A DNA stretch of 64,000 bases, taken from positions 10,049,660-10,113,659 of the forward strand of contig OZ316893.1 of the NCBI GenBank assembly GCA_973895155.1, given 5' to 3'. Positions 1-29,567 of the stretch are shown here, piece by piece. The translations under genes were made by a program, and so were the position numbers. The notes beneath the pieces were generated by a model that saw nothing but the letters and a program-made list of their open reading frames with translations, did not search any database and was not told the DNA's origin. Position 1 is the first letter of the stretch, and every line of letters starts with the position of its first letter. This DNA comes from Marsupella aquatica. Its lineage: Eukaryota > Plantae > Marchantiophyta.

Positions 1-228
1 TTCTTTTTTATTGTCCGATGCTGCATCCGATACTTAGAGGATCGGACTAGAATCGGACCTTACATGCCGAAAGCAAAAAAAACTAAGGCATGATCGAGCG
101 ACCTACGGGCATACAAAGACCTGTCCCGGGTTTGGAAGGGTTAGGCATTCGACAATTGGCCTCAGGTGATTAGGGAGGAGGAATGCTGCTGAAGGAATGC
201 ATGGAGAGGAGGGGAATGGAGCACTTAC

Positions 229-1224
229 AAAATCGGCCTTGAGACGCTGTGATCCGCCTTGCCCCATTCTGTGAGTAACCTTTGGCCTCTTTGTTACTCT
301 CAGCAGAGCTTTCATTAGCCAGGATGCTGGGTCTCCAAGCAGGGCTGATTTTGCTGACCATTCTTCAAGTTCTTGATGCATGGGTGCAGTATTCACCATC
401 TCTCCTTGTTCAATCTTCTTCTGAGCTGCTTGAATTTCAGCTTCCCAGCGTTGTGTGGCTTGCCAAGCTCGAACCTGCAACTCTTCTTCAAGCCAGGCAC
501 ACCAAGCATTCTCAGGAATCTCACCAGCTGGGCTTCCCCCTTTCCTGATCACCTCCTCATCCAGTTTGCATTCAGCCAGGTACTTTCGCATCTTCTCTCG
601 TACATGATTTTGCATGTCTGCAAGTGAGACTGAGATCTTTTTGTTTAAGAATCGATCGTCCACAAACGACCCATTCAAAAATCTCTCTTTGATTTGCTCT
701 CGAATTTGAAATCTCTCATCCTGCTTCTTCTTCCCCCAGTAGTCCATCGGGCCAAAATGAGACCTCACAATCTGCCTAACTTGACTCCCAAACAAACGAT
801 AACTCCTGGAGAGTGGAGCACCTCCCTCATTCAGAAACAATTTTGGCCTCTTGGCCCTATCATCTGCCTTCTTTCGTTCCTCCTGAATTCTTTGTCGTTC
901 TGCAGCCCAAGCCTCCCTCCTTAGGCTCTTCTCCTTTTGTCTTGGTGATAGGGCTTCCACTGGCCTCTCTCTCTCGTCCTCCCTAGTGTTACGTTTCCTC
1001 TTCCTCTGCAATCTCTCCTCCTCGAGTCTGGCTTGGAAAGCTTTTTCTGCATCAGTGATGGCTACCTTCTGGGAGCTGTCGATCAGTCCTTGAGTGAGCT
1101 GGGCTACCTGCAATGCAACCTCCGGTGAGAGCCCCACTTTCTCCCTAAACAATTGAGCCATGACTTCACCATAGCTGCTTGATGGCCCGGCACCATCTCC
1201 CATCCCTCCCGCATTCCCTTCCAT
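229..1224 (-). CDS. CACTA ORF2 / TnpA-like protein, first coding exon (element 1)
   Basis: Long basic coiled-coil ORF ending in THRMGQGG..LKADF, then a GTAAGT donor at 228. Homologous to THRLGQGG..LKAAF in element 2. The H-x-x-G-x-G-G motif resembles CACTA ORF2 (Transposase_24-like) proteins. Confidence 0.65.
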
Positions 1225-2289
1225 CGCTACGAGCTCTGCAAAGGTATCGTGAAATGCTCCCGATGCTTTTCCCGACTAGAGTGCCTTCGCACTTTAGTCG
1301 GGTGACCTAAAAACCCAAAATGCATAACGTCCGATACTTTCTGCATCGGAAACTCCGATTCTAGGTCAATCGGACTTAGTATCGGACCCCTCCTCCAAAG
1401 TATCGGACTTAACCCTCCCAATGTATTTTCTGATGGTTTGTGAATCGCATGACCTTGGCATTTGGACTTTTGCATTTGGATCCCATGTATACTATAATGA
1501 CCCCCTTTATGTTAGTTGGGGGTTAATTATGCTATATTGTGGGCTTATTAGGTGTGCGGCGCAAAACGGGCATATCAACGTACAGTGGCCGTGACAAAGC
1601 TAGCACACTATTTTTTGGTGGGTATGGATGATCATTGAATGTATGTACCCAGATCTATTTTCAGTTTGATTTTAAATGATTCCCATTTTGACCATGAGGC
1701 AATGCTATATGCATGGTGCAACTTTTGGGGACTATAAGAAGTCACAAATTAAATTAACACTCTAGTGCCGTTTTGTGCAGTTTTGTATTTTTTGTTTTTG
1801 GAGGGTCGGGTCGTTGCTTTTCCTTGGTTTTCTTAGTAGGGTTTATTTTTGCCAATGAATTATGCACAGCGAGAGTACGCGCATCCAAAAGGTATGACAT
1901 ATATGATCCTCCAAAATGTATTGGAAATATTTGACATGATATATGCGTTACTTGTGGGAGTTTATAATTGGACATCCAACTCGTCATTGATTTTTATTAA
2001 TTTCATTAATTATTGGTTTGTTACTTAGGTTTGCATGTATGTCATCTCATCTTTCAACTTCCCCACCTAGCCTGTATGTGCAGGTTTTTTTGGATTGGCC
2101 TTAGCATATAGTCTAAGGCTTAGAGCCTAGTAGGCACTGTAGAGCGCGGATATCATTCAGGTACTAATTAAGTCCAACACTGCAAATTATTAACATACTA
2201 TATATTTCCTGTTTGGGTTTACCTCAAGTTAGGGTGATGAATCAATCTTGCATTTTGGTAAAGACTTGTTTGTGTGTAATTGGCAGACA

Positions 2290-2520
2290 ATGTCGACTTC
2301 TGAGAGTTTGGATATAGATTCCGACTCTGACTTGTCTTCCTCTGAGGGGGACATTCCTCCTCCCCCTCAACAGCCTCGAGCACCCCCTCCATTAGGCCCT
2401 ATTCCATGCTGGTGTCTTAGATGTAAAGGACTGGTGGTTCGTCAAGCGTGGCAGTCCATTGAACACATCGAAAACTATGGTCGACATGAGGGTGATTTAC
2501 TGGGATATTCAGCTCGCCAG
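2290..2520 (+). CDS. Shared first coding exon: transposase-associated Zn-binding domain (element 1)
   Basis: ATG at 2290 just after a TGGCAG acceptor. Acidic/Pro-rich start, then CWCLRC...EHIENYG (C-x-C-x2-C...H, transposase-associated domain type). Phase-0 donor CAG|GTATTG at 2520/2521. Confidence 0.8.
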
Positions 2521-2630
2521 GTATTGCTTGACATGAACTCCGCTATATATGATACACTATCATAATAGTTGGCTGGTTTGAGACCTTTTAGGAGACAAGT
2601 ATTAATTTTTGTTTGTTTATGATTGAATAG

Positions 2631-3593
2631 GTGCGTTGTAGGGCCCGTCCTCCATTGGTCTCTAGTCAACTATGGCATGATGCATTCCTAGCTGGTGCTA
2701 GACAGTTGCTTGCATCATCAGTTGAAGACCCCGAGCAATCATGTACCCCCGCACATGTTCAGGCAGATGTTGTTCATGAACCCATAGTGGTAGAGTTGGG
2801 GCATGGTAGGGATGATGCACCGCCCCCTACTAGGGTTCTACGCACAAGACCACGTTCTCATAGACGTCGACAACAGCATGTAGTTCTAGACACAGACCCA
2901 TCCCATGAGCACTTTAGAAGGAGTGTTATGCCTCCACCAGGGGAGGAGTACATAGAAGTTGAAGGGAGGTTGGGCTTGTCATATGTGATGGGAAAGGCAA
3001 TCAGTGTCTTCAAGGATTTTGACCCTGAGAGTTTTGCGATTCCTCGTGGCCTAGCCATTGACATCCCTGTACATATATGGGGTCGGCAATGGATAGTGAA
3101 GGCATCGACCCTTGGCGGGGAGGTTGGGTTAGGCTTATTTGCTTTGGAGGACATTGAGGTCCCTCCAAAGCCTTGGCGTCGTGGCTATGATGGGGAACAC
3201 CTTTTCCCTTACATTGGGCCTGTGTATACATCCAAGAGTTGGAACATCCTCTTGCGCCAACATCCAGCTTGGGGGGTATATGCATTGCAGATGGACTCAG
3301 ACCCAGATGAGGTCCTAAGGAGGCCTTGGCATTGTAGGATGATTGATGGGGACCCTGTCCGTTCAAATAACATAGCTGGGTACATCAATAGTACACATGG
3401 TAGAGGGAGTGGACTCCAGCCTAATGTAGAGTGGGCTCAGATTTTTGGCCCACCCACTCCGCCTTACTATGTCACACATATGGATGATCATGTTATGACA
3501 GTAGCCATACGGACCATTAGGGCGGGTGATGAGTTGTTTTGTGACTATGAATGGAACGCAACCACGATGGGCATTCGATCTGGCCACACTTAG
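2631..3593 (+). CDS. SET/PR-like lysine methyltransferase exon inside the CACTA transposase intron (element 1)
   Basis: Acceptor AATAG|GTG at 2630/2631, in frame with exon 2290-2520. SET motifs GLGLFALEDI, FPYIG, IDGD..NIAGYINS, PNVE, IRAGDELFCDY. No stops. Confidence 0.85.
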   Translation: MRCRARPPLVSSQLWHDAFLAGARQLLASSVEDPEQSCTPAHVQADVVHEPIVVELGHGRDDAPPPTRVLRTRPRSHRRRQQHVVLDTDPSHEHFRRSVMPPPGEEYIEVEGRLGLSYVMGKAISVFKDFDPESFAIPRGLAIDIPVHIWGRQWIVKASTLGGEVGLGLFALEDIEVPPKPWRRGYDGEHLFPYIGPVYTSKSWNILLRQHPAWGVYALQMDSDPDEVLRRPWHCRMIDGDPVRSNNIAGYINSTHGRGSGLQPNVEWAQIFGPPTPPYYVTHMDDHVMTVAIRTIRAGDELFCDYEWNATTMGIRSGHT

Positions 3594-3701
3594 CACATAT
3601 GTGTATTCCCCATTTTTGAAGTAATATAAGAATATTGTAGTTTTTTAGGAACCCATGGGCTAACTCAAACGTATATATGTGTTTTGTGCGTTGTATGATA
3701 G

Positions 3702-5927
3702 AATGCATATGTTGAGCCGGATGTTGGGGTGTTACCACGAGCTATGCGCCAACACCTTGTGCAGGCCATGGAAGATTGGCGACATGCCTCTCTACCACCA
3801 GATGGCGATCCGGATGTTCCAGAGCAGGAACCAGATGCCTCCCAATCAAGAGTTGATGAAGATAGGGCCATGGATGACTTGATGCACCAATTCTATGACA
3901 TAGAGGATGGTGATCATGACATGGCTGATGGGGAGAACATTGAGGTCCCACTTCCACATCAAGAAGGTTGAAGGAGTTCAGCCTCCAAACAGTGGGAGGA
4001 AGCACGTCAACATGCGCAAACTCGGATATTTGATGGATCACGCTTGTCTTGTCTTTCAGCAATAATGTTGTTGTTGAACTTGCAACAAAGACATGGAGCA
4101 AGCAACTTACTTCTTGATGATCTCTTTCGGACATTGCATGATTGTATCTTGCCAGAAGGAAACAACTTGCCAGACTCTTGGAAAGAGGCAAAGAAGGTGT
4201 TGAAGTCCATAGGTCTGCAGGACGAAGTCATACATGCTTGCGTGAATGATTGCGTTCTGTTTAGAGGCACTTATAAAGATGCAACGTCATGTCCTACATG
4301 TGAGAAGCCTAGGTATCGTGAGGACATGTTGACGGGAAAAGTTCCTCAGAAGGTCATGAGGTACTTTCCTCTTATACCTCGTTTGCGCCACCAATATAGA
4401 TGTGCTGAGTTGGATGAGTATATGGTTTGGCATTCCCAAAATCGCTCAGATATGAGTTCACAACCACCCACCATGTGCATGATGGTTGACTCCCCTGCAA
4501 ACAAGTTTGTGGAGGAGAGATGGGGTGAGTTCCGAACTGACCCACGTCATGTTCACCTAGGATTGGCAGCGGATGGCATCAGCCCATTTGCACTAGCAGG
4601 TAAGGCCCAACCATATTCACTATGGCCAATGGTCCTTACTAATTACAACATCCCTCCATGGATGTCCATGAAGAAGGGTCATTTGCTCCTTTCCATGATT
4701 ATCCCTAGTCCTAAGCAAGTGAAAAAAATTGATGTGTACTTGCAACCATTGATTGAGGAGCTACAAAAGCTTTGGAGTGGTGTGGATTGCTATGATGGTC
4801 GAGTGCAAACGGGGGGCTTACGTCGAGAATTTAAGTTGAAGGCCATTCTTATGTGGACCATACATGATCTTCCAGGTATGAATCTTTGTTAAATTATCCC
4901 TTCCCATAGCTAGGCAACCGTACCTAGCATACTTTGTTATGTATTGAGTTAGCTAGAAGCACATATATCTTTTAATAAACTTATTTACTTATGCATGGGA
5001 TATATATTTATATGCAGGGTTTGGATATATTTCTGGCCTGACCACATCAGGATATCAAGCTTGCCCAACTTGTGGACCTAATTTGGAAGGAATAGCGCGG
5101 CCAAAGTCAAAGACCTTGAGGAAGATAGTGTATATTGGTCACACCAAGTACCTCCCTCCAGACCATGATTGGAGGAGAGACCCCTTTTTATATGACACTG
5201 AGGATGGCCAACCAGACAGACGACCACAACCTATTCCAAAAGATCCTGCATATTGGAAAGAGGTATGGGAGAGAGTATCTAATCCAGATGACCCATTGCA
5301 ATATGCCCGGTGTGGCATGACTTGTTTGTCTGCATTGTCACAACTACCTTATTGGGCTGAGATGCCACTTAACCATTTATTTGACCCTATGCACATTGAG
5401 GGAAATGTTGGGAGGTCCTTGATTCGCCACCTATATGGAGAGAAAGACAACAACTGGAGAGAGAGTTGTGAAGAGATGGGGATGCATGGCCCTCATGGTT
5501 TTTGGCCATCTATGGATCCCGATAATGCCCCCCTTACTATTCATCCTCCTTGGGTTTTGACACGAGGTGAGCGGACCGAGTTTCGCAAACGCATAGGGTC
5601 TATGCGATTTCCTACAGGGTATGGTGCCAATCTTCGCAAGGCATTTGGTGGACTTGACTCTCCAAAATGGCCAGCTTTCTTGAAGACCCATGATTATCAT
5701 CGCTTATTGCAACATGTTATTCCAATTGCTATTATTGGATTGGGTAGTGAGGATCTTCGTGATGCCCTTTGGTCGTTGGGTAAGTTGTTGAGATGGGTGT
5801 GTCAAAAGGAGGTGAACGAGGATGAGGTTGCAGCAATGGAGGTGTTTGGAGTGGAGGTTGTGTGCAAACTTGAAAGGGCCCTTCCTCCTTCATTTTTTGA
5901 TGGTCAGGTTCATTTTCTACTACATCT
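3702..5927 (+). pseudogene. CACTA Tnp2/TnpD transposase, 5' part (exons 3702-4875 and 5018-5927)
   Basis: Phase-0 acceptor ATAG|AAT GCA at 3701/3702. In-frame TGA at 3969-3971. Motifs IHACVNDC..CPTC, LGLAADG, WPMVLTNYNIPP, WTIHDLPG, DPMHIEGN, LKTHDYH, FFDGQVH. GT-AG intron 4876-5017. Broken by copia at 5928. Confidence 0.9.
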
Positions 5928-6348
5928 TGTTGAGCATAGACGACGATCGCAACGGCAAGCCCATGAACCATCCAACGCACAATAGTCGACACAAGAGATA
6001 CGTGGTTCACCTCCTTGAGGCTACGTCCACGGGAACACACAAGAGAGCTTTACTGAACTCTAAGCCCGTCGGCTATACCGAGTCTCCACAGTGTAAGCTC
6101 TCCCTATCTCTCAAGTGGCTCCATAACAATGAGCCTTGGTTCTACCTCTCCAAGCACACATGCCTCTTATGATATAGTGTGCAACTTAGTTGTACCTAAC
6201 CACATAGTTGTACCTAATCACGTAGTTGTACCTAACCACATAGTTGTACCTAATCACGTAGTTGTACCTAACCACGTAGTTGTACCAACCCACGTTGTTG
6301 TACCAACCACGTCATACCTAACCTAGACGTAAGAGTAAATACCCAACA
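5928..6348 (-). repeat. Copia 3' LTR containing an 18-bp tandem array (TAGTTGTACCTAAYCACR, about 7 copies)
   Basis: Direct repeat of 12002-12422. Purine tract AAGGGGAAGAT adjoins it on the minus strand. Confidence 0.95.
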
Positions 6349-6539
6349 ATCTTCCCCTTGACTCTGGTCTAGGGGAGAGTAATACTGCCAATGTATATGA
6401 TCCCTCAGCGGGAAATTCTGGACAGAAACCAAACCGGTTTCCCTCTCTAACTAGAGCAAACCAGAACTAAGCCGTAGCCTAATACATAGGAATGAGGAAG
6501 AGCATATATCAGTAATTACAATGAATGTTTAAGAAAACT

Positions 6540-9500
6540 CTACTTGTGATGCAATTGCAAAACCTGCAATACGTCACGGTGTCTAGAGAAACTCTCCAAA
6601 GGAATCACTTTGGTAAATGCGTCAGCCGGGTTGAGTTTACCATCAATCTTGACTAGCTCAAACAAATTATCAGACACAGCCTGCCTGATAAAATGGTACC
6701 TGACGTCAATGTGCTTCACTCTGCTGTCCATCACCTGGTTCACAGCAAGGTGGAGCGCACTTTGACTATCACAATGGAGCTTCACATTCCCCTGTGGCAA
6801 TCCCATTTCAGTGATAAGTCTATCCAACCAAATCGCTTCCTTTGCTGCTTCCGCAGCTGCAACATACTCCGCTTCTGTAGTAGACTGAGCAATACACTTC
6901 TGCAAAGTAGACCTCCAACTTATGCATCCACCGCCAAGTGTGAACACGTATCCTGTTGTTGATCTCCTTCGGTCCAAATCTTGTCCATAGTCAGAATCTA
7001 CATAGCCAATCAATGATCTAGCATTCTTTGCATTCGCATCAAATAAAAGACCATGATCCACGGTACCCTTCAAGTACCTGATAATCCACTTCACTGCTTC
7101 CCAGTGTACCTTCCCTGGATTCGACATGTACCTGCTCACCTTGCCCATAGCCATGGCAAGATCAGGTCTAGTGCAAGTCATCAAATACATGAGACTCCCC
7201 ACTGCCTTGTCATATGGAACCTTTGACATCAACCCCTTCTCTGTGTCATCCGTAGAACATAACGCTGATGATAACTTGAAGTGTGGAGCCAACGGGGTAC
7301 TTACTGGCTTGCTATTCTCCATGTTGAACCTTGCAATTACCTTCCTCGCATAACTGCTTTGCGTCAACCATAGCTTGCCAGCCTCCAAGTCCCTAGTGAT
7401 CTCCATACCCAAAATCCTCTTAGCTGGCCCTAAGTCCTTCATCTTAAACTCTGCACTAAGCAGTGCCTTGAGCTTAACAATCTCAGACCTATCCTTGGCT
7501 GCAATTAGCATGTCATCCACATAAAGTACTAAAACAATGAACCCAAAGACAACATTCTTCACCGGTTTCAAATACACACAAGGGTCAAATACACTTCTGT
7601 GAAAACCTTGTGACCAAATCCAATCGTCAAACCGCTTGTTCCACTGTCTTGGTGACTGCTTCAACCCATACAAGGATTTCAGCAATCTGCAAACCAATTC
7701 CTCCTGTCCTCTCTTCACAAAACCTAGCGGTTGTCTCATGAAGATCACCTCTTCCAATGTGCCATAGAGGAAAGCTGTGACAACATCCATCTGATCTAGG
7801 AGCAGACCAAACATTACAACAAGTACACACAATAGTCGTATTGTAGAGTACTTAGCAACTGGTGAGAAGACCTCATTGTAATCCACACCTTTCTCTTGTG
7901 TGAATCCCTTTGCTACCAATCTAGCCTTGTAGACCTTCGATCCATCTCCTATGGAATTATCCTTCAGCTTGTAAATCCACTTGCTGTCCACCACTTGCTG
8001 ACCCTTAGGCAGCTTAACAAGCTCCCAAGTTTTGTTGTCCTTTAGTGACTGCATCTCCGTTTGCATTGCTGCAGTCCACTTCTGCTTCTCTTTTGAAGCA
8101 CTTGCCTCATGAAATGAAGAAGGTTCTCCTTCTTCCAAAATTAACGCATCACCCTCATCATCAGCTGTAAAATCATCCTCTTGCAGTTGAGATGAATCAA
8201 CCCACTGTCCATACCTTGATGGAGCGCGTACAGTGCGACCAGATGTTCTTCTAGCCGATGACTCCGGTTGATCTGCGTGTGCTGGTACAATTTGAAGCTC
8301 AACAGCATCCACTTGTTGCTCACCAGCATCAACAAACTCCTCTGGTTCCTCTGGCATAGGAACCAGCTCCATAATTGGAGCAACTCCTTCTCTCCGGTCA
8401 TGCACCTCATAACCAATCTCCCCCTCAATGAGATCCGGGATAGGAGATTTTCCTTTGTCAGTACGGGAGACCTGAGTATTCTCCCCCTCCTTCAATAATC
8501 TAGATTCATTGAAGGAAACATCCCTACTGACAACGAGCTTACAGGCAATAGGATCCCATAGCCTATAGGCTTTCACACCACTCTGGTACCCAAGAAAAAC
8601 ACATTTCCTGGAGGTAGGATCCAACTTGGTCCTATTCTGCTTTGGTGTGAGAGCATATGCATCACTTCCAAAAATTACCAAGCCATGATAGTCTGCTTGC
8701 CGCTTATAGCGCATCTCAAACGGCGTTTTGAAATTGATAGCACTAGAAGGAGAAAGATTTACCAAATAAGCTGCGGTATTGACAGCTTCTGCCCAAAATT
8801 CTTGTGGTAAACCTGATTGGCTCAACATACTCCGTGACCGCTCCAACAGTGTCCGATTGAGCCTCTCAGCGACACCATTCTGCTGCGGAGTATAAACTGT
8901 GGTGAGATGGCGAGTTATCCCCTGTTCTGAACAGTACTCTTCAAATTCCATTGAAGTGTACTCCCCGCCGTTGTCTGACCTCAGACTCTTCACCCTTGTA
9001 TCCAAACACTTGATCGTGTTTCCAGTCTGATTCTCCACCTGGGCCTTCCACTTCTTAAAAATGGACAAGACATCAGACTTATGCGTCATGAAATAAATCC
9101 ACACAAATCTTGAGTAATCATCAATAAATGATACATAGTACAACTTTCCAGAGTGTGAGGGAGTCGGGGATGGACCCCACACGTCACTATGTATGTACTC
9201 AAGAACCGCTTTGGAACGATGAGTTCCAACACCAAAAGCACGACGATGCTGCTTTCCAAGAATGCAATGCTCACAAAACTCTAATTTACAAGATTGCAAA
9301 TCAAAAATGAGTCCATTCTTCCGTAAGATAGCCAAACCCTTCTCACTCATGTGGCCTAGCCGTGAATGCCACAGTTGAGTCATCTCCTCGTGAGACTTGG
9401 TTACATTGGCCTCTCCACATACAGTATTGCCCTGTAACACATACAAATTCTTTTGTCTACTCCCCTTCAAAATCATTGTCTCTCCCGACCTGACTTGAAG

Positions 9501-9812
9501 TTCACCATCAATAACGCTCCATTGATGACCATTTGAATCCAACACACCGAGTGAAATCAGATTCTTATGCATGCCAGGTACATACCTGACTCCGGACACT
9601 ATGCGCACAGCCCCATCAAACATTTGAATCTTCACAGACCCAATTCCCTCAATTTGACAGGAGTGATCATTTCCCATCAGAACTGAACCGTTTGAAACAG
9701 AGTAAGAACTGAAAAACTCACGAATGTAACAAATATGAAAAGAGCAAGCACAATCAAGAATCCACACATCATCTGCTCTCCTAGATGACGTGTACAGGGC
9801 ATACCCCCGGCT
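6540..9812 (-). CDS. pol: Copia pol (protease, GAG-pre-integrase, integrase, RT, RNase H)
   Basis: WILDCACSFH, WHSRLGH..CEHC, FIDDYSR, LRSDNGGEY, QNGVAER, KARLVAKG, YVDDML, YVDSDY, KHIDVRYH. Open frame all the way back to the gag stop. Confidence 0.95.
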   Translation of the reverse strand, partial: SRGYALYTSSRRADDVWILDCACSFHICYIREFFSSYSVSNGSVLMGNDHSCQIEGIGSVKIQMFDGAVRIVSGVRYVPGMHKNLISLGVLDSNGHQWSVIDGELQVRSGETMILKGSRQKNLYVLQGNTVCGEANVTKSHEEMTQLWHSRLGHMSEKGLAILRKNGLIFDLQSCKLEFCEHCILGKQHRRAFGVGTHRSKAVLEYIHSDVWGPSPTPSHSGKLYYVSFIDDYSRFVWIYFMTHKSDVLSIFKKWKAQVENQTGNTIKCLDTRVKSLRSDNGGEYTSMEFEEYCSEQGITRHLTTVYTPQQNGVAERLNRTLLERSRSMLSQSGLPQEFWAEAVNTAAYLVNLSPSSAINFKTPFEMRYKRQADYHGLVIFGSDAYALTPKQNRTKLDPTSRKCVFLGYQSGVKAYRLWDPIACKLVVSRDVSFNESRLLKEGENTQVSRTDKGKSPIPDLIEGEIGYEVHDRREGVAPIMELVPMPEEPEEFVDAGEQQVDAVELQIVPAHADQPESSARRTSGRTVRAPSRYGQWVDSSQLQEDDFTADDEGDALILEEGEPSSFHEASASKEKQKWTAAMQTEMQSLKDNKTWELVKLPKGQQVVDSKWIYKLKDNSIGDGSKVYKARLVAKGFTQEKGVDYNEVFSPVAKYSTIRLLCVLVVMFGLLLDQMDVVTAFLYGTLEEVIFMRQPLGFVKRGQEELVCRLLKSLYGLKQSPRQWNKRFDDWIWSQGFHRSVFDPCVYLKPVKNVVFGFIVLVLYVDDMLIAAKDRSEIVKLKALLSAEFKMKDLGPAKRILGMEITRDLEAGKLWLTQSSYARKVIARFNMENSKPVSTPLAPHFKLSSALCSTDDTEKGLMSKVPYDKAVGSLMYLMTCTRPDLAMAMGKVSRYMSNPGKVHWEAVKWIIRYLKGTVDHGLLFDANAKNARSLIGYVDSDYGQDLDRRRSTTGYVFTLGGGCISWRSTLQKCIAQSTTEAEYVAAAEAAKEAIWLDRLITEMGLPQGNVKLHCDSQSALHLAVNQVMDSRVKHIDVRYHFIRQAVSDNLFELVKIDGKLNPADAFTKVIPLESFSRHRDVLQVLQLHHK

Positions 9813-10847
9813 TCATAAAACATACTCATCATTGAGTAAATCAGCTTCTCCATCAGCCCTAGCCACATTTGCCGATGAAGTTTCCGCTGCCTTTCCCTTA
9901 CAGTCTCGCTTGAAGTGTCCAACTTGGTTGCACTTCCAACATGTCACCTGCCTCCTCTGAGGGGATTTACCCTTGGACTTAGATCTGGATTTAGATCTAA
10001 ACTGGGTTCTACGGTCCCCAGTTGGTCGCTGCATACTCCTCCCACGGTTAACATTGAGGGCAGCATCAGATGATGAAGGCTGTGACGTGATGTGCATCTT
10101 CTGCTGAAGATCATCACTAAGCAGAGAACTTACCACGTCATTGTATGAAATGGTATCCCTATCACGATGCAACAACACTCGTGATAGGGACTGGTAAGAT
10201 GGAGGCAATGAACTAAGAAGCTGCAGAGCCTTCGTCTCATCATTCAAAGTCTCCCCAAGGTTTTCCAAGTCAATGACCATGTCGTTGAAAGCATCCACAT
10301 GGTCTTGCAACTTCGTACCAGATTCCTTCATTCTAAAACTCATCAGTTTGTAGGAAGTGTAGAGCTGGTTCGACAACTCCTTGCGGTGATACTTGCTCTG
10401 CAATTCCGCAAACAAGGACATGCAATCCTTATGTGCACCTAACTGCTTGATGATGGGAGGCATGAGATAGAGTGTAACACACCACACTCCCTGCTCCTGC
10501 ATGCGGTCCCATTGTTTCTCATCAACATCGTCTTCACGAGGGCTCAGCAGTTGGCCCATCCCTAACGCATAAAGCACTCCCTTCACCTGCTTCTCCCATA
10601 GCAAGTAGTCAGAGCGCCCATCATACTTTGTCACTTCATACTTGGGTCCCCCAAGCTTGAAAGTCCCCATCTTCTTCTTTACCGTGAGCTCCGGTAGTAG
10701 TACTGCTTCCTCCACCACACGCCGCACCAGTGATGGTATCGGTGTCACGTGCTCTTCCTCCTGCTCCTCTCTCTGCCCCTGAAACCTCCGCGGTGATCCT
10801 CGTGCTTCAAGTTCCACGTCTTCGAAAAACTCCTCCGAATCACTCAT
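9813..10847 (-). CDS. gag: Copia gag
   Basis: KYDGRSDYLLW, LLSSLPPSY, zinc knuckle CWKCNQVGHFKRDC. Ends in a TGA that is in frame with pol. Confidence 0.93.
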   Translation of the reverse strand: MSDSEEFFEDVELEARGSPRRFQGQREEQEEEHVTPIPSLVRRVVEEAVLLPELTVKKKMGTFKLGGPKYEVTKYDGRSDYLLWEKQVKGVLYALGMGQLLSPREDDVDEKQWDRMQEQGVWCVTLYLMPPIIKQLGAHKDCMSLFAELQSKYHRKELSNQLYTSYKLMSFRMKESGTKLQDHVDAFNDMVIDLENLGETLNDETKALQLLSSLPPSYQSLSRVLLHRDRDTISYNDVVSSLLSDDLQQKMHITSQPSSSDAALNVNRGRSMQRPTGDRRTQFRSKSRSKSKGKSPQRRQVTCWKCNQVGHFKRDCKGKAAETSSANVARADGEADLLNDEYVL

Positions 10848-11987: not shown

Positions 11988-11999
11988 GCTCTGATACCA
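11988..11999 (-). promoter_or_regulatory. Primer binding site (initiator Met tRNA)
   Basis: TGGTATCAGAGC on the minus strand, 2 nt inside the 5' LTR. Confidence 0.9.
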
Positions 12000-12001
12000 A
12001 T

Positions 12002-12422
12002 TGTTGAGCATAGACGACGATCGCAATGGCAAGCCCATGAACCATCCAACGCACAATAGTCGACACAAGAGATACGTGGTTCACCTCCTTGAGGCTACGT
12101 CCACGGGAACACACAAGAGAGCTTTACTGAACTCTAAGCCCGTCGGCTATACCGAGTCTCCACAGTGTAAGCTCTCCCTATCTCTCAAGTGGCTCCATAA
12201 CAATGAGCCTTGGTTCTACCTCTCCAAGCACACATGCCTCTTATGATATAGTGTGCAACTTAGTTGTACCTAACCACATAGTTGTACCTAATCACGTAGT
12301 TGTACCTAACCACATAGTTGTACCTAATCACGTAGTTGTACCTAACCACGTAGTTGTACCAACCCACGTTGTTGTACCAACCACGTCATACCTAACCTAG
12401 ACGTAAGAGTAAATACCCAACA
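12002..12422 (-). repeat. Copia 5' LTR
   Basis: Near-identical to 5928-6348 (AACGGC vs AATGGC). Confidence 0.95.
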
Positions 12423-12427
12423 CATCT

Positions 12428-18757: not shown

Positions 18758-20854
18758 CTAGAAAGGAGTGTTCCTGCCCCTCCTTGCCTTCTTCCCCTTG
18801 GCCTTCTCCTTGCCCTTGTGTGCTCTTGGGGGGGGTGCAACATGGACTTCCTCCTCCTCTTGGTCACCCTCGGGGTCACCCTCATCCTCATCCTCATCCT
18901 CATCCCCACCTCCACCGCCCTGGCTTGCCGCGCTACCACCCCCAGCACCACTGGAACGTGCTGATGCAAATGACTGGTCTCCAGTGCTAGTTGGCCTGGC
19001 TTGAGTAGCAGGAGCTGTGCTCCCCTCCCCTGTCCCCTCCACATCCTCATCACTACTATCGGTGCCACCCTCGGTATGGGAGTCACCATCCTCCCCTCCC
19101 TGCTTCCATTAGCAAACCAGGGTGTCTGTTAGTCTCATATTCTTTACAAGTGTGAACAAAAGAGATATTCATTCAAAATTGCAATGAATGTAATAACCTA
19201 AAAATTCTCACCAATAATTCATCAACTTGCTGAAAGAGACGCTCCTTCCCATGTTTCTGGCCCACCTCCATCTCAGCCGCCGTAATCTTCCTCTTGTACC
19301 TCTTGTACTAAGCCAAAACAAAACCAGCACAATTGGGTTAACACCAACCCATAACCCGATTCACATGGCTTCTAAAAATTAGGGGGTTTGTTGGGGCTGG
19401 TGGGGTGGTGCATCAAGGTTTTGGGGTTATGGAGGGTGGCATATATGGGGAAGACCCTCAAAGAACACTTAAACGATCGGAAAATTTAAAAATTCAAATT
19501 TTTGAAATTTTGCGAAGGCGCCAACTTCGCAATCATAAGGACAATTACGTTTGCGAAGCTGGTTGCGATGCGAACGTCTTTGCAACGCCTTCGCAAACGT
19601 AAGCAAAAAAAGGGCATAATAAGGTTTGCGAAGGATTTGTGAAGCTACCCGCATCGCAAATGTATCGCAAACTCTGTCATGGCAAAAACCCGAGAGGGAA
19701 GCAACTGTACGTGACCTAATCTGACACAACAAGTCTAATTGTAACTACTTGGTGGAAATGCAAGAAAGAGTTGGCTCATTGCAGGTGTGTTGGAATAGGA
19801 ATTGGAGTAGCAAGAAGTCAAGGGAGGAGAGGGAGGTGCACTCACGAATGCTGCTTTGAGGCCGGGGAGGCCACCTTGACCCAGCCTGTGGGTGATGTTG
19901 GGCTTGTCTCGGACTCGCTCAGCTGCCTTCAGGAACTTGTTGGGTGGATCGCCTACTTCTGCTACAACCTGCTGGAGCTGGGCTACCTTCTGCTCCATCA
20001 CCTTCAGGTCCCGGTCAGACTTCCCGGCCTCCTTTGCCCTTCGAGCCTTTGCCAGCTTCTCTGTGAAATCATTGAGGAGCCTGGCTGCTTTCAACTTCAC
20101 CTCTGTCTGGTAGAAGGCCTGCCAGATATCTTCTGAGAATTGCAGCGGCCTCTGCAAATTCCTATACTCCTCCAAATCTCTAAGGTGAGACCTGATCTTC
20201 ATTCTATCATGGTATCTAGCTTGTGACATGGAGTTTGAAATTTTGTCAACAAGCCACTGTGAATCCATCTCTCCTCCATTTCAAAATGCATCTTTCACCT
20301 GATTGATGACTCGCTTCTGCTCTGCCTTTGAGCGAGTGCCCCACTCGACTCCTCTTGCAAAATTTGTGGATACAATGTGCCTGATTGTGCTCTTGGCCCC
20401 ATTGTAAGCAAGCTCGGTGGGAATCCCCTCATCCTCTAAAGTAATCAGAGGCAGCTTCCTCCTTGCTGCCTCCTTCTTTCTTTGCTCCTCCCTCTGTTTC
20501 CTGATCAGGTCTCTCTCATCTTTCCTCCTCTTCTTTTCCAATGCTTGAGGCGAGAGCACTCCAGCCTGAGCTCTCTCGTCCCTCTTTCGCTTCCTCTCAG
20601 CAGCCACCTGCTCTGCTGCCTTCCTTGCATCCTCCTCCACTGCTGCTTGCCCTGCAGTGAGACCTGCTTGCAAGGCTTGGCCCAGAAGGGCACTCAATGA
20701 TGCCAGCCCTGCTGGACTGGTGAAATCAATTTGACTCAACTATGCAACCAAAAAATGCTCATCCACAATCGCCTTCAATCGATCCCCCCCCTCGGTTGCC
20801 TCCGCTGCTGCCAGAAGCTCCTCCATCACCACCAGTCCCCTCTTCGCTCGCCAT
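18758..20854 (-). pseudogene. CACTA ORF2 / TnpA-like gene (element 2), multi-exon, disrupted
   Basis: Probable ATG at 20854, apparent frameshift in a G run near 20790, in-frame stops at 20740-20742 and 20281-20283. THRLGQGG motif, then GTGAGT donor at 19845. Probable last exon (about 19100-18758) has an acidic DEDEDE tract and a basic KGKKARRGR NLS-like end. Downstream exon boundaries are uncertain. Confidence 0.62.
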
Positions 20855-21559
20855 CGCTCCGCCCTTGCCCTCGTTGCTCTCCTCAGGCCTGAATGAACTG
20901 AATCCGCCTTGTCCGCGCTCGGCAATCCATAAGGATTCAAAATATTGGGCTTTGCGATTCGTTTCGCATCGCAATTTGCGATGCATCGGCCTTCGCAAAA
21001 AGCTTCGCAAATTCTATCTTTGCGAAGCTTCAAGATTTGCAAAAGCCTTCGCTATTTGGTTTTGCCATAACCCCCGTCTCGCATGCGTATTTGATGTGTT
21101 GTTAGGGATACTAAGGGGGCTTATGAACATTACATGGGGTAGATGTAGAGGATTATGTTGCATTTTAGTGGGATGTGATGAGATAAGGATTGGGGGGGTT
21201 AGAAAATTGAAGGAGTTATATTGCAGGGTAAGAGGAGGGGGTTTGGCCTGGTTAGGGGAGGGTTTCTTTTGTGAAGGTTGGGCTTAGATTGGCTTAGATA
21301 CGAGGGGTTTTATGTTTTGGGTTTGCAGGGGGGTTTTATTTATGAAGGTTGGGGTTATATGTATTGGAGGGTAAGAGCTAGGAGGGGTTTTATGTTTTGG
21401 GTTTTGGGGTTTAGGCCAACTTAGGAGGGTTTGAAAGAGAGGTTTCAGTTTTATAGTATCTTGGGTTACTTTTATGGTATCTTAGGAGGGTAACCAAGAG
21501 GGGTGGCATATAATTATGGTAGAGAGAAGCATAGGATGGTTGAAGGGAATTGACCATTT

Positions 21560-22630
21560 AGGTTTTTGCTAACTTCATTGGCTTACGCTTTTAGAGTTCC
21601 CAAGGGTCTATGGTGGGTTTTTATTGCATGACACTCACCTTTCACTTGAAGCGGGATGAGGTTTTGGTTTTTATGCTAACAATTGAGGGAAATCCCATGT
21701 AATCATGATCCAATGCAGGACCATCACTGCTTCCTCAACTTTTGTCTAATGCATATGCATTGTGGGAACCCGGACATCTAAAAGGTATATTTAAACATGT
21801 ATGTTAGCAGGGTTTGATAAAGAGATTGTTCATAAACCTTGCCCTTCTTTGTTGTGCAAGAATATCTATATGCACATGTTTGGGGGTCTACAACTTGAGA
21901 GAAGCTAATGGCTATCCAAACTTACTTTTTTGTTTCCAGTATTTTCCTCGTGCTTCTAGATTCAGCTCATGTTCAATGAGCCACACGACCTACAAGCACT
22001 ATTGAGTCCGGATCTCATTCAGGTAATTATTGTCCAACTTCATTCTGGGCTTAGGCCTTTAGAGTTTTCCCAGGGGTCTAGGGTGGGTTTTTATTGCATG
22101 ACACTCACCTTTCACTCGAGGGGGGATAAGGGTTTAGGGTTTAGGGTTTTATGCTAACAATTGAGGGGAAAACCCATGTAATCATGATACAACGCAGGGC
22201 CAACACTACTACCTCAACTTTTGTCTAATGCATATGCATTGTGGGAACCCGGGCATCTAAAAGGTATAACATCATGTATACAGTCAATGTTGTTAGTACA
22301 GATTTTTATGCTTGCCCTTCTTTGTTGTGCCATGATATATGTGGGTAAATGTCTAAGATTCCACAACTTGACGGCTGCTAATTACCATCCAAACTTACAT
22401 TTTGTTTCCAGTATTTTCCTCCTACTTCTAGATTTGGCAAATGTTCCAAAAGCCACGTGACCTATAGGCACTGTTGAGCCCGGGTCTCATTCAGGTAATA
22501 ATCTAACCTCACTTAGGACATAGGGTATTACAATTTTCCCAAAGGTTATAATGTGGTTTCTTCTTGCATGACACTCACCTTAATTTGGGTTTCATGCTAA
22601 CAAATATAAAAGGGTAATAAAACCCCATGT
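21560..22630 (+). repeat. 472-bp tandem duplication (2 copies plus a partial third) containing an 83-nt putative 5'UTR exon
   Basis: TTTCCAG|TATTTTCCTC...CTCATTCAG|GTAAT at 21940-22022 and 22412-22494. TTGCATGACACTCACCT occurs three times. Confidence 0.8.
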
Positions 22631-22737
22631 ATAAACCAACCTAATTGTTTTTTGAGTTCATTTTTTTTAAAATCGCTTTATATATGGCCTAATTTTTCCT
22701 AATCATGCCCTACATGCAATGTAATGTGGCAGTGGAT

Positions 22738-22962
22738 ATGTCCTCTTCCTCTGAACTATCCAGTAGTGAGTACTCCTCCGATGACGATATACCCCCTCCT
22801 CCTCAGCCCGAGGTTACTGGTCCTCGTGGTCCACCCCGAAGACTTTGTGACTGCACCAGATGTGTGGGCCAAATTTCTCAAAAATCTTATGTGTGTGCTC
22901 AACATATTGAGAGATATGGACATCATAGAGGTCTTACTCCCGGGGCTTCTTCATCCCATATG
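22738..22962 (+). CDS. Shared first coding exon: transposase-associated Zn-binding domain (element 2)
   Basis: ATG at 22738 after a TGGCAG acceptor. CDCTRC...QHIERYG. Phase-0 donor ATG|GTAAGT at 22962/22963. Confidence 0.8.
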
Positions 22963-23073
22963 GTAAGTTTGTTTCAATTGATTGCCGTTCTTTACTGTTA
23001 TTTTTAGAGGTGAATCAATGTTTACACATATGGTTTACACATTTGGTTGTTTGTGGGTGTTTGCATGGAATAG

Positions 23074-23904
23074 GGATCCAGTATGCGTAGATTGGTGACA
23101 CCACCACCCTATGTCCCATCACAAGGAGTTTTAGATGCTATAGGCAATGCACTTTCACAAGCCTTGGGTTTGGGAATTAGTACCAGTCATGGGACAGAAG
23201 GGGAACACCGTCATGTGCCCACTGAGACACGAAGACCCCGGTCCAGGCCCCAATCCAACAGGAGGCCACGAGCACCCAATGACCCATCCAGAACACTAGT
23301 TCAGGGTAGGTGGGGTGTTTGTTCATTCACTGGCAAGTGTGCCTCTATCATCAAGGATTGGGAACCTATCACTCTTGGCTTGCCTTATTTTACAGATTTT
23401 GATGAGGAGATTGTGGTTTGGGGTAGACGTTGGATTGTGAAAACTTCCACACTTGGAGAGAGACATGGATATGGAGTATTTGCTTGTGAGGATATCATCA
23501 TGGATGAGGAGGGTGGGTCAAGTGTTCGTGGTAGAGAGGGTCCTACTTTGTTCCCATACGGTGGACCCATCTACAAGAGAAGACATTGGAACATGATCCT
23601 TGCACAACATCCTGAGTGGAAAACATATGCTCTAGAGATGGATACTTTTGATGGTAGCACTAGAAGGTATAGTGAGCAGCGGGTGATAGATGGTGATCCC
23701 ATACGTAATGAGAATATTGCTGGTTTCATAAATAGTACTGTGGGGACTCGGCCCAAGCGTAGGGCCAATTGTGAGTGGGTTTTTACTGATGGTCCAATGC
23801 CGGCACCATATGGCACGACATATCATAAGGACCATTGCTTAGATCTTGCTACTAGGACCATTAGAGCAGGAGATGAGTTATTCACACACTATGAGTGGGA
23901 TTAG
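23074..23904 (+). CDS. SET/PR-like lysine methyltransferase exon inside the CACTA transposase intron (element 2)
   Basis: Acceptor AATAG|GGA at 23073/23074, phase 0. GYGVFACEDI, FPYGG, IDGD..NIAGFINS, ANCE, IRAGDELFTHY. No stops. Confidence 0.85.
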   Translation, partial: GSSMRRLVTPPPYVPSQGVLDAIGNALSQALGLGISTSHGTEGEHRHVPTETRRPRSRPQSNRRPRAPNDPSRTLVQGRWGVCSFTGKCASIIKDWEPITLGLPYFTDFDEEIVVWGRRWIVKTSTLGERHGYGVFACEDIIMDEEGGSSVRGREGPTLFPYGGPIYKRRHWNMILAQHPEWKTYALEMDTFDGSTRRYSEQRVIDGDPIRNENIAGFINSTVGTRPKRRANCEWVFTDGPMPAPYGTTYHKDHCLDLATRTIRAGDELFTHYEWD

Positions 23905-24115
23905 GAAATCATGTCCTTTATCCTCTTGCACCTATTTTGGACTTCCCATTTACTATTATATATATGGCCTTTGGGCTCATTTTGGAGTAATAAGGTTTTA
24001 GCCCATGCATTTACTTTAATTCTTAATGTCTTGAATGAATGGTGTTAAGTCTATTTTAATTTGTTGTACTTGGTCAAATATACATGAGGAGGTTTTTTGG
24101 TTGTAATGTGCATAG

Positions 24116-27100
24116 AATGCGCAACCATCTCAACAAATGTTACCACGAAGGTTGAGAGCAACATATCGGGAGATGGGTATGCTAGAAGAGGGAGAACCAT
24201 CAGAGGGTGATTCCTCATCAAGTAATGATGTAGGTGGTGCTGATGAGGAAGCCGCACCTCGGACTGATGACCAGGTCATGCATGATCAAGATAGAGCCAT
24301 GGATGACTTCATGGTTGATTGGTTTGGTGCCGATGTTGAGGATGATGTGCCTCACATTGGTCATGAGGTTGGCCCTTCAAATGACCCACGGCCACAACAT
24401 ACTCCAGAGGGACAACAACAATGGAAAGAGGCAGAGGAACATGCTCGAACACCTATTTTTGAGGGTGCTCGGTTGAGCCGTCTTTCTGCCATATTGGGGC
24501 TCTTGAACATTCAAGCCAAACACAAGACAAGCAATTCTATGTTATCAGACATATTTGAATATTGTCATGACTTGATGTTACCCTCGGAGAATGTGTTGCC
24601 AGGGACCTAGAAGGATGCAAAGAAGGTTCTCTCATCCATTGGTATGGATTACCATATTATTCATGCCTGTGTGAATGATTGCATGTTATTTCACGGGGAT
24701 ACAGCCCATATCACAGAATGCACAGTGTGTCATGAGCCACGGTATGAGCCAAACATGCTAACCCAGAAGGTACCAAGGAAAGCAGTTCGTTGGTTCCCCA
24801 TAATTCCTCGCTTGTTGCACATGTATAGATGTTCTGACTTGGCCGAGTTGATGGTATGGCACAAGAAACATCGTTCGGAGCCCGGTGTCATGCGATTACC
24901 AGTTGACTCTCCTGCTCATAAACATGTGGAATCAACATGGCCAGATTTTGAGCGTGACCCTCGGCATGTGCGACTGGGGTTGGCATCAGATGGAGTTAGC
25001 CCTCATTCACTTGGAGGGAAGGGGAGACCTACATCGGTCTGGCCTGTGGTTCTCATGAATTACAACCTTCCACCATGGTTGTCCATGAAAAAGGGTTTTT
25101 TGTTGCTATCTTTGATTATCCCAGGGCCAAAGAAGGTGAAGAACATGGACACCTATTTGACATTACTGGTTCAGGAACTCCAGAAATTATGGGAAGGAGT
25201 ATGGGCATATGATGGTCGAAAGACTACAGGGGGTACCCCACGGGTTTTCAAACTCAAAGGGGTTTGTATGTAGACCATGCATGACTACCCAGGTAAGAAC
25301 TTTGTTGTTTAAATGCATCATATTCTAATGCATGGTATCCCCTCATTTCCATGTGCTAATCCTAACATAATGTGTGTTTATATGACCAGGATTTGGCTTT
25401 GTGAGTGGGTTGCAAACCCAAGGCTACAAGGCTTGCTCCACTTGTGGCCCAAGCCTTGGTGATGTAGCCAAGTATTCATCACATCTTCGCAAGATTGTTT
25501 ATCTTGGGCATACAAAGTTTCTTCCAATGGGACATTAGATGAGGCGTGACCCACTACTATTTTCCTCTATTGATATGCCCTTTGGTGACGAGCGTGATGT
25601 ACCTGAGCCAACAACTTTTACACACTGGAAAGACATGGCTGCAAGAGTGGCAGACCCAGAGGATCCCATGCAATTTGACGGTAGTGGCTTGACAAGGTGG
25701 AGTATATTAACCACTTTGCCCTATTGGGGTGAGTTGAAGATCCGCCATCTATTAGACCCCATGCACATTGAGGGAAATGTGGGAAAGGCTTTGATAAAGG
25801 CTTTCTATGGAGAGAAAGACACTAACTTCAGGGAGGCTTGTGAGGATCTTGAGATGCATCCAGACGTGTGGGTCATAAGTGATCCTATCACGGGGATCGA
25901 GCATCGACCTTCAGCTCCATGGGTGCTTCCTATTGGCCAGAGAAGGGAGTTTCAGAATCGCATAGGAGACATGCGGTTTCCTACTGGTTATGGTGCCAAT
26001 CTCCGAAAGGCCTTTGGGATGGAGGACAATCATAAGTGGCCAAGGTATCTCAAGACACATGACTACCATAGGTTATTGCAGCACATATTGCCTGTGGCCA
26101 TAATAGGTTTGGCAAGTGAAGAAGTGCAAGATGCCCTTTGGTCATTGGGAAAACTATTGAGATGGGTATGCTCTAAGGAGATATATACTGATGAGATCCC
26201 TAGGATGGAGGTTTTGGCAGCAGAGGTGGTATGCAAGTTGGAGAAGGCCCTTCCTCCTTCCTTTTTTGATTGTCAAGTGCATTTACTTGTTCATCTTGTT
26301 CATGAGGTGGCCATTGCAGGTCCTGTGCATTGTCGGTGGATGTATTGGCTAGAACGATACATGGCAGTGTTAAAAGGTTATGTACGTAACCGTGCACGGG
26401 TTGAGGGAAGCATGGCTACAGGATACTTAGCAGCTGAGAGTATGTTCTATTGTAGTAACATATTGGCCACAATTGATTGTACCTCTCCCCGTACTTGGGT
26501 AGAGGAGAGGGAAGATGAAGAGGATCGTTTAACAGGTGCTAGGAAAACTCGCATGTTGACACCAGTGGAGGTGAAACAACTGACCACATTCATGTTGAGT
26601 AACAGCACTATCATGGAAGAATGGAAGGATTTCTATGAGGATGCCAAAAGTAACAGCACAAGACCAAGGATTTTTCCAAAGTACCTTGACTATATGAAGG
26701 AGAAGTTAGTTGAGGTGGATGACATGGTGGTCAGGGGAGAGAGTGTATTACATTTTCCGGCTATCACAGATGATGTTCGTACCATTGTTCATGGTCCCTT
26801 GAGAGTGGTTACAACAAGGACAGCAATGTGGACACAAGGAAGACATTTTAGGTGATCTCCATCTACCTTAGTAACCTTTGATTTGAATCACTTGGTTTAA
26901 TTTAATTCATTTGTAATACAAGCACGTATATTGAAGAGGCAGATTCTTGGTGTGTTCAATTAATTGGAATATGTTTGTGTCTATTTTTGTGTAACATATC
27001 CTTATGGTTTGATGGATTTTAGGATTTCTTCCCTTGATGAGAAGAGGGGTCATACCTTTGATTGTGGAGTTCAAGGACAATTCTCTCAAGATTCCCGCAG

Positions 27101-27509
27101 CAGTCGCCATGACACAAATATTATTCGAGATGTTGTGCCACATTATGGAAAGGTAGAAGAGATTCTAGTGATATCTTATGATGCACAATCAAAGTTTGAA
27201 GAGTATGTCTTCAAGTGCAAGTGGTTCAAAGTGAACCTTGCAGGTAACAATCCTACTGTGGTTCAAGATGAGTGTGGATTTACACGACTGAAGACGTCTG
27301 CCACTAGTTTCCAGCCATCTCATTGGCAAACATCAGAGCCGTTCACTTTTCCAAGTCATGTGGAACAATGTTTCTATATTCCATACCCCCCAAACCCAGA
27401 GGAATGGTCACTTGTCATCACATATGTGCCACGGTCTCGTTCAATCGTTGGGGAAAAGCCTGATATTCTGGTTGTGTCCCAACCTGAAGATGATGAGGAC
27501 CAAGTTTGA
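24116..27509 (+). pseudogene. CACTA Tnp2/TnpD transposase (exons 24116-25292, 25390-26851, 27023-27509)
   Basis: Phase-0 acceptor ATAG|AAT GCG. Same motifs as element 1. In-frame TAG stops at 24608, 25271 and 25536. Two GT-AG introns keep the frame. Confidence 0.92.
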
Positions 27510-29567
27510 GGGGTCTGTGTTTGTGGATATATAGCTACACGGATATATAGTTAGATTTGATGATATGAAGATTTCTCTTCTCGGTAGAATGGAGAAATAT
27601 GTGCTTCTCAATTATCAATAAACTTATGTTTTGTAAGTATATCATTTTCAAATGTTGTTTTCTATATCTCCCATCCCTACCCCACACTCACCACACCTTT
27701 TGGTAGACTTTATGCAAAGAAAACTCATGTTGCTTGTAGTCCTCTATCCTCCATGCTTTCCTAATCCCCCCCTAGCTGTTCTCCTTATTACTTGTACCCA
27801 CCTCCCTCCTCCTTTCTTTCATTGTCTGTCCCTCTTATTAAACCCTCCTTCCTCCTTCCTCTCCTTGTCCCAACCCCTGGCTTTCTATTTCAACCCTATA
27901 CTTTCCTTACTTTCCACCCCTGTCCCCCACTCTTACCTATACAAGCTAGCTTCTCTCCTCCCTCCTAAACCTATACCCTTAAACCTCCCTCATTTCCTTG
28001 TCCCTCTCTAAACCAATACCCTCCCTCCTTTCCTTGTCCCTCTCTAAACCCTAAACTCCCTCCTTTTTATTTTCACTCCCTAAATCCAAACCCTCCCTAA
28101 AACTATATCTACATACCCTTCCTCCTCCCTCATTTCCTTGTGCCCCCTAAACCTGTATCCTCCCTCTTGGATCCCTTCGTTCCTTGTCCCTCCTAGCCCC
28201 ATTCCCTTCCTCCTCCTTTTCATTGTCCCTCCCTAAAAATTACATGTATCCACCCTCCTTTACCCTCCCTCCCCAATCCCATTCCTTTTCCACCTCTTTG
28301 AAGCGCTCATAATATTTTGCGAAACATCTTGCGAAACCCCTACACCCGCAAACTCATCGCTACATTTGCGATACTTAACTGCTCCCTAATTGCCATCATC
28401 CCCTCATCGCAAACTTCCGAAGATACCACCATCTCAAAGTTGCGAAACCAAAACATTCACAAAATGAGACCCTAGACAGGCACAGGATTTGCGAGCCTAT
28501 TACTATCGCAAGTTAGCCATATATTCCACAAACATCGCTCATTTGCGAGACAATAAGACTCGCAAAATATTTTGAGATGCTTAAATATTCGCAACCATTT
28601 AGTTTTCCGGCGCATCTCAATGAATTTGCGAAGCGGTAAAGATCGCTAACGTGTTCAATGGTAATTGCTTCGGAAATGTTTTGCGATACCTGAAGTGTCA
28701 TAAAATGTTGCGATGGTCTAAGTTTCGCAATTATGTGTTGCGATGTGTGTAGATTTGCTAAGTGCGATGCGTATCGTATCGCAAGTTTAGCGATGAGATT
28801 AATCTTGCAAAGCTTTCTTCCTCTTGTAAAACGCCTTCGCAAAATTGGCAAATATGTAGTAGTGAATGAAGCTCAATTTTGCTTTCAAGGGCATGAACCA
28901 TGGTTTGCTCTGAAGTTTATCTTCCTAGTCAATTTTTCTAGACCTTGTTGCACAAAGGGACCTATTGATATCCGAGCCTTATTACTTCATGTTCATTTTG
29001 ATTGTTAGTGTTGCCATTCATTTAACGTGAAAGTCATATCATTTGCAGTGCAAACCATGGTTTGCACTACTGAGAATAAGTATCACAAGCCCTCATTGCA
29101 CGAATCTTGGTTTGCAGTATCCCCATTGATTTGTCCTGAAGTTCATTCCCTGTAACCATTTGCAAAGCAAACCATGGTTTGCAGTACAAAGAATAAATAC
29201 CAGTCACAGCTAGCTATCTTGCACGAACCTTGGTTTGCACTGTCCCAGTAGTCTTTGATTCAATTCATTTAGATTCAAAGCTAAATATTATTCCATGAAC
29301 CTTTGTTTGCACTATCCCTAGTCATCTTTGATTTCATCTAGATTTAGAGCTTGCAGCATGAACCATGGTTTGATGATCTACATTTTGCCAGAATCCAAAC
29401 TACTCTATGCTGTCCCTGGGAGAAAATTAAGTCAAACATTTCAAAATATCTGGTTTCTTTGAACATTCAACATGTTCTTTAAAGAATATCCTTGACACAT
29501 CTTGCCGACAGTATTCTTATGATCAAATTTGTTTTTGTTGTGAAGCAGAGCGAGAACGCACATAGTC

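Follow-up and report, generated by a model that had tools for sequence, protein, structure and literature searches.

Why would a transposon repeat, in its interior, the short motifs that mark its ends? The question is raised by 64,000 nucleotides of the liverwort Marsupella aquatica (GenBank assembly GCA_973895155.1, contig OZ316893.1, forward-strand positions 10,049,660 to 10,113,659), here called the window; all coordinates below are positions in it. The window holds two CACTA-type elements: element 1 (1-14278), whose left end lies beyond the window, and element 2 (17970-28864), which is complete. Both carry clusters of a CpG-containing motif, at termini and around a gene, ORF2. A preliminary description had listed seven hexamer clusters there and read them as family-specific addresses for ORF2 and/or a SET-domain isoform; all seven are found at or near the coordinates that it gave. 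We propose that the motifs are bound by pairs of ORF2, a predicted TnpA-like helical factor that would organise the ends for the transposase TnpD and, through the internal sites, control expression of its own gene. We give this reading a probability of about 0.6.

The motif unit is a spaced palindrome, T[C/G]CGA-N11-TCG[G/C]A, rather than a loose hexamer. Exactly 11 bases separate the two five-base cores, in element 1 as TCCGA-N11-TCGGA and in element 2 as TGCGA-N11-TCGCA. With up to one mismatch allowed, element 2 has 25 such dyads at spacer 11 and none at spacers 8, 9, 10, or 12-16; element 1 has 10, and none at 9, 12, or 13. The spacers of the 25 element 2 dyads are mutually unrelated. Where two protein subunits bind double-stranded DNA, their sites usually show just this combination of a constant distance and an unconstrained spacer, which suggests such a pair here. 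Inverted pairs of TnpA sites are described in the older Spm literature. A hairpin role was set aside: a hairpin does not need a fixed loop length, and the spacers are free. The one-base difference between the cores (TCGGA versus TCGCA) that had been pointed out earlier is real, but it is neither the only difference nor a strict one: the base following the core differs as well (A in 49 of 55 element 2 halves, C or A in element 1), and mixed dyads, combining C and G half-sites, stand at 14021 and 18423.

All 35 dyads fall inside seven small non-coding clusters (2,378 bases as drawn). The same search, again with up to one mismatch, finds none in the remaining 61.6 kb or so of the window, none in coding DNA, and none in the stretches outside the elements (14279-17969 and 28865-64000). 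Element 2 has a left subterminal cluster (17993-18505, 9 dyads), an intron-1 cluster (19510-19670, 3 dyads, 2 of them with tandem half-sites at both sides), a cluster about 100 base pairs (bp) 5' of the likely ORF2 start (20952-21083, 4 dyads), and a right subterminal cluster (28317-28842, 9 dyads). Element 1 has an intron cluster (14-57, one dyad with a tandem half-site at each side), an upstream cluster about 105 bp 5' of the ORF2 ATG (1330-1407, two dyads and two half-sites), and a right subterminal cluster (13761-14256, 7 dyads). These element 1 clusters had been located before, with limits that now shift: the exact hexamers upstream of ORF2 occupy 1330-1407, and the right-end cluster begins at 13761.

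The internal clusters flank the first exon of ORF2, which lies on the minus strand in both elements. In element 1, exon 1 (229-1224) is an open frame. In element 2, exon 1 (19846-20854) is damaged by internal stops and a likely frameshift close to the start, and exon 2 (19212-19307) sets intron 1 at 19308-19845, a join that agrees with annotated Sphagnum proteins. The element 1 cluster probably lies within intron 1 as well, judging from a homologous donor at 228; exon 2 would be outside the window. Splice predictions for the window genes combine splice signals with annotated homologues.

In a comparison with a shuffled background, as had been suggested, half-site counts exceed every one of 1000 dinucleotide shuffles in all seven clusters; dyad counts are equalled in 4 of 1000 shuffles for the element 1 intron cluster and in none for the other six. 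Since the cluster intervals were set after the motifs had been seen, related loci serve as the independent test. We used 39 metagenome loci from a scan based on the SET domain. An ORF2 match, about 70% identical to the ORF2 of element 2, is present in ten of these, and all ten carry the element 2 dyad; 23 lack a dyad of element 2 type, and none of those has an ORF2 match, several containing just a partial SET domain or an interrupted TnpD. The related elements keep dyads at four positions: both ends, the first intron of ORF2, and the region upstream of that gene. One locus, L028, is a full element with a target duplication (ACA) and all four clusters. Internal clusters are conserved among family copies, as the preliminary description would require: each of the nine ORF2-matching loci that span intron 1 has 2-3 dyads there (8 distinct loci, L037 repeating L004). 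All 105 dyads of the 39 loci stand at cluster positions, with none in the remaining 182,501 bases (here too the intervals were set once the hits were known), and the spacing recurs, with 101 dyads at spacer 11 versus 0-4 at spacers 7-10 and 12-16.

The motif has been retained while its context turned over. In two homologous upstream dyads, core bases are identical at 22 of 23 positions and spacer bases at 7 of 22 (p 7e-06). Between element 2 and L028, blastn aligns coding DNA at 72-80% and cannot align the cluster DNA; the intron clusters of relatives likewise keep the motif despite DNA that blastn no longer aligns. Contigs of four public runs that cover the element 2 intron cluster show 33 differences: 26 lie outside the cores, 2 restore cores decayed in the window copy (19581, 19640), and the others are 4 CpG decays and 1 other half-site change, all of them minority alleles. 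The motif clusters are real and probably selected. Five of the loci (L004, L007, L031, L033, and L037) have an element 1-type half-site, TCGGA, in the first upstream dyad and otherwise the element 2 dyad; this subgroup is possibly an intermediate in the motif change.

Which protein reads the dyads? ORF2 is the likely candidate: no other part is as well conserved between elements of one motif type as its predicted helical domain, and few are as poorly conserved when the types differ. Between element 2 and Sphagnum, which share a motif, the domain is 88% identical (TnpD 67-85%, SET 79%, exon 1 81%); between elements 1 and 2, which differ in motif, it is 32% identical (TnpD 56-64%, SET 48%, exon 1 41%). 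The ORF2 profile is matched by 97 representatives, and named homologues come from Sphagnum, Calypogeia, and Riccia; the exon structure agrees with the annotated Sphagnum proteins. Residues of about 125-220 are modelled as a three-helix domain (pLDDT, the predicted local distance difference test score, 87.5), through which ORF2 would read the dyads. Among the top 50 structural matches to this domain, 18 are BEN, homeodomain, Myb/SANT-type, or similar DNA-binding domains, all weak. TnpA is characterised by a tandem pair of helix-turn-helix motifs, each tri-helical; for ORF2 one three-helix domain is modelled, with weak BEN, homeodomain, and Myb matches (Z up to 6.0). ORF2 may resemble the Transposase_24 region of TnpA (a conserved Trp and H-x-x-G-x-G-G). 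Other searches were silent: Foldseek at E 0.001 gave no match for either model, a PDB sequence search gave nothing useful, and a whole-protein VIA structural search was taken up by a helical hairpin. A homodimer prediction for ORF2 (score 0.00, mark 0.32) speaks neither for nor against a dimer.

The proposed mechanism runs as follows. Two ORF2 copies would sit on each spaced palindrome, contacting half-sites of 5-6 bases, 11 bases apart. ORF2 would be the TnpA of a bryophyte CACTA clade and, at the ends, would organise the transposition complex for TnpD. From the middle of the element, ORF2 and TnpD/SET run in opposite directions; the ends could then not double as promoter sites as they do in maize Spm, and the promoter would need sites of its own. 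The cluster about 100 bp upstream of ORF2 could supply activation of the TnpA type, by local demethylation and positive feedback. More speculatively, the intron-1 cluster, with its extra half-sites one helical turn apart, might load several ORF2 molecules; as the weakest step, it might act as a roadblock that damps ORF2 transcription at high protein level. Bound TnpA can block RNA polymerase, and a roadblock on defective Spm elements is described (PMC2613891). The extra tandem half-sites sit 11-12 bases from internal dyads and occupy 6 of 8 intron dyad sides in the window versus 2 of 50 terminal sides; the related copies have them at 6 of 38 intron, 10 of 76 upstream, and 0 of 56 terminal sides. 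Their frequency at internal dyads and rarity at terminal ones suggests cooperative loading. The earlier claim of internal sites placed for ORF2 control is supported by inference: the clusters are enriched and conserved across a diverged family, and the helical domain of ORF2 tracks motif type.

Several results weigh against ORF2 as reader and regulator. The structural Z scores of its domain, at most 6.0, are in the range of common folds. No PF03004 (Transposase_24) or other credible Pfam match was obtained from the window ORF2 frames, alignments of 7 and 26 members, or 22 further homologues. Outside the domain, ORF2 has diverged just as far between elements 1 and 2 (31-33%). Two motif types are all that the correspondence between protein and motif is built on, and mixed dyads make the family specificity less sharp. 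The family-specific addresses first proposed for ORF2 may stand insofar as its helical domain tracks motif type, but motif specificity is a bias, not exclusive. At the DNA level the analysis turned up no relative of element 1: scanning metagenomes with the ORF2 alignment returned no locus, and the 39 SET-scan loci include no element 1-type relative with dyads, so that the internal clusters of element 1 rest on a single copy. In the related copies, tandem half-sites are about equally frequent upstream and in the intron, and thus do not single out the intron.

The state of the CpGs belongs on the same side of the balance. The preliminary description had them persisting in the motifs, which is true only in part: decay alleles occur in 6 of 25 element 2 dyads and 1 of 10 element 1 dyads. 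Protection of the motif CpGs is not supported. In 13 aligned related copies (L033 excluded as misaligned, L037 as a repeat of L004), decayed states make up 54 of 192 motif CpGs versus 130 of 463 outside the clusters, 28% in both. Inserted copies have no CpG protection; as motif CpGs decay in them, the motif is presumably maintained by selection in the transposing lineage. The raw observed-to-expected ratio of non-motif CpGs is 0.86 in the clusters versus 0.27 in other non-coding DNA. Once near-motifs are masked, the excess shrinks to about twofold (p 0.02-0.11), and a CpG-island reading was not relied on.

How do these elements compare with known systems? They show the features of CACTA/EnSpm transposons: CACTA/CACTG termini with short terminal inverted repeats (TIRs), a 3-bp target duplication (AAT in element 2, ACA in L028), TnpD domains Transposase_21, DUF4218, and DUF4216 in the scanned element 1 frames, and subterminal repeats in both direct and inverted orientation. 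Arabidopsis TnpA-Spm1 binds clustered CCVTCGCAAA at termini, and demethylates and activates cognate elements; Spm motifs are family-specific, and TnpA-like proteins are apparently limited to flowering plants (10.64898/2026.08.24.746577, as far as its text passages go). As in En/Spm and Arabidopsis TnpA-Spm1/Spm3, the motifs here are clustered at both ends in direct and inverted orientation, contain CpG, and differ by family. The Spm1 motif (CCVTCGCAAA / YCCTCGCAA in the same source) has TCGCAA in common with the element 2 half-site; exact CCVTCGCAAA occurs 0 times in the window and CCNTCGCAAA 5 times. In the available passages, TnpA-Spm1 binding and demethylation are reported at termini alone, whereas here two further conserved clusters flank ORF2 exon 1. 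The fixed 11-base dyad is absent from those passages ('palindrom' and 'dimer' occur 0 times in the preprint, 10.64898/2026.08.24.746577), although the figures and supplements might show internal motifs or spacing. ORF2 also differs from En/Spm TnpA in being a gene of its own, divergently oriented, without a PF03004 match.

The internal placement recalls VANDAL elements and their VANC proteins (PMC5735166 and PMC10398659), whose family-specific short motifs lie in introns, intergenic, and terminal non-coding DNA near the presumed reader's gene. All 35 window dyads and all 105 related-locus dyads are confined to such non-coding DNA. VANDAL elements are Mutator-like, not CACTA, and VANC motifs multiply as tandem repeats, whereas here the spacers are unrelated and the geometry is palindromic; no long self-similarity was seen among the clusters (Tandem Repeats Finder was not run), so that amplification of this kind is not apparent. 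A literature search, with the older Spm literature mostly outside its reach, listed nothing on internal CACTA clusters, the N11 dyad, or these elements of bryophytes. Terminal, family-specific CACTA motifs bound by TnpA are already known; what sets the present elements apart is that the dyad spacing is strict, that internal clusters are conserved, and that a candidate reader resembling TnpA is present in bryophytes.

Of the other explanations, the one that survives best accepts ORF2 binding and makes all four clusters structural, the internal ones being loading or bridging sites for the transposition complex with no part in transcription control. Dyad geometry is identical at the ends and internally, a DNA-bridging TnpA4:TnpD2 complex has been modelled (PMC13547354), and CpG protection is absent in copies. 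We nevertheless consider it unlikely: both families have their internal clusters in intron 1 and at about 100 bp upstream of where ORF2 starts, and other long non-coding stretches, such as 21111-22737 and 27510-28299, have none.

A slightly poorer prospect is a reader in the Cys/His domain of exon 1, which TnpD and the SET isoform have in common; it would deliver TnpD to the ends, and to the internal clusters a histone methyltransferase. This small domain lies on the plus strand at 2290-2520 in element 1, with predicted splicing to SET or to TnpD, and at 22738-22962 (plus) in element 2; the SET-domain exons follow at 2631-3593 (plus, PF00856 E 7.4e-07) and 23074-23904 (plus, PF00856 E 4.5e-04, slightly short of the curated cut-off, with 57 homologues). 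The join of exon 1 and SET is annotated in the homologues P0006 and P0007, and such proteins occur in Sphagnum and Calypogeia. Identity of the domain is 81% between elements that share a motif type and 41% between those that do not, and transposases can regulate their own elements (text passages of 10.64898/2026.08.24.746577). Yet its core is just 27 residues, DNA binding by it is purely conjectural, and within a motif type it is less conserved than the ORF2 domain; known CACTA elements, moreover, use a second protein to bind subterminal repeats (PMC2613891 and PMC8195511). The earlier proposal that the SET isoform or its exon-1 domain is the reader found no positive evidence.

The isoform itself (2290-3593, 22738-23904) is about 79% conserved in Sphagnum and Calypogeia. 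It retains GxG and terminal Tyr-like motifs, but NST replaces the usual NHS, which makes its activity uncertain. DNA transposons with a SET domain are also known from Phytophthora (HarbingerS and MuDR, as mentioned in PMC12730594); those belong, on that mention, to other superfamilies and hosts, whereas here SET is a predicted splice isoform with TnpD exon 1, with no motif link found. An extended version of the ORF2 reading, equally doubtful, would enlist this isoform in a self-contained switch: an ORF2 dimer, with an 11-base ruler and swappable half-site specificity, might activate its own silenced promoter from upstream, damp itself through a cooperative roadblock in intron 1, and recruit the SET isoform of its element, which would place a chromatin mark there; reader, writer, and addresses would then move as one package between mosses and liverworts.

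Binding by a host transcription factor dimer, which would drive expression or protect the sites, is improbable. Placement in promoter and first intron does fit host enhancers, and the mixed C/G dyads are compatible with one tolerant reader; but the core differs between two elements of one genome and is constant between element 2 and elements of other organisms, and the remaining 35 kb of the window has 0 dyads. A last reading, in which the internal clusters would be neutral leftovers of duplicated ends or of nested elements, is largely refuted and scarcely credible: rearranged internal DNA is frequent in CACTA elements (PMC8978399), but no internal TIR adjoins the clusters, cluster-to-end alignments reach at most 56 bases at 71-82% and cover the motif only, so that the ends were not the template of the internal clusters, and cores are conserved while spacers changed between families.

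Maize and Arabidopsis are the plants in which anti-silencing of the TnpA type has been mapped, and there at the element ends. Should ORF2 be the reader of the dyads, the system extends to bryophytes, with autoregulatory sites inside the element. The two elements form a natural variant pair: same spacing, one core base changed, and a reader domain 32% identical. The pair makes the co-evolution of reader and address testable, and likewise whether sites used for transposition are separable from those used for regulation.

The remaining features complete the picture of the two elements. Element 2 has CACTAC at both termini, flanked by its AAT duplication; the right end of element 1 is CACTG on the minus strand, and that terminus resembles the element 2 TIR. 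Element 1 TnpD (3702-13469, plus) carries Transposase_21, DUF4218, and DUF4216 and is split by a long terminal repeat (LTR) retrotransposon at 5928-12421. Element 2 TnpD (24116-27509, plus) contains premature stops and is 56-64% identical to that of element 1. In the retrotransposon, the integrase precedes the reverse transcriptase, by eye a Copia-like order; the insertion, flanked by a 5-bp duplication (CATCT), is very recent, because its 420-bp LTRs differ by 1 base.

Coding DNA of element 2 is 72-80% identical to that of L028, and at the protein level identity to both moss and liverwort homologues (P0006, P0007, and P0128) is similar, a hint of possible horizontal transfer among bryophytes. 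Between the upstream cluster and exon 1 of element 2, at 21590-22580, lie about three diverged tandem units of some 470 bp, part of which recurs in element 1 at 2126-2178. A different palindrome, AACCATGGTT with its variants, is present in about ten copies at 17580-17940 and 28890-29390, so that element 2 sits within its cluster. This second cluster stands directly upstream of unassigned open reading frames at 29544-35966, one of them a NIF-phosphatase-like frame, and may mark a further mobile element that has an address motif of its own. Farther along, frames at 43737-49142 resemble, by eye, UDP-glycosyltransferase genes.

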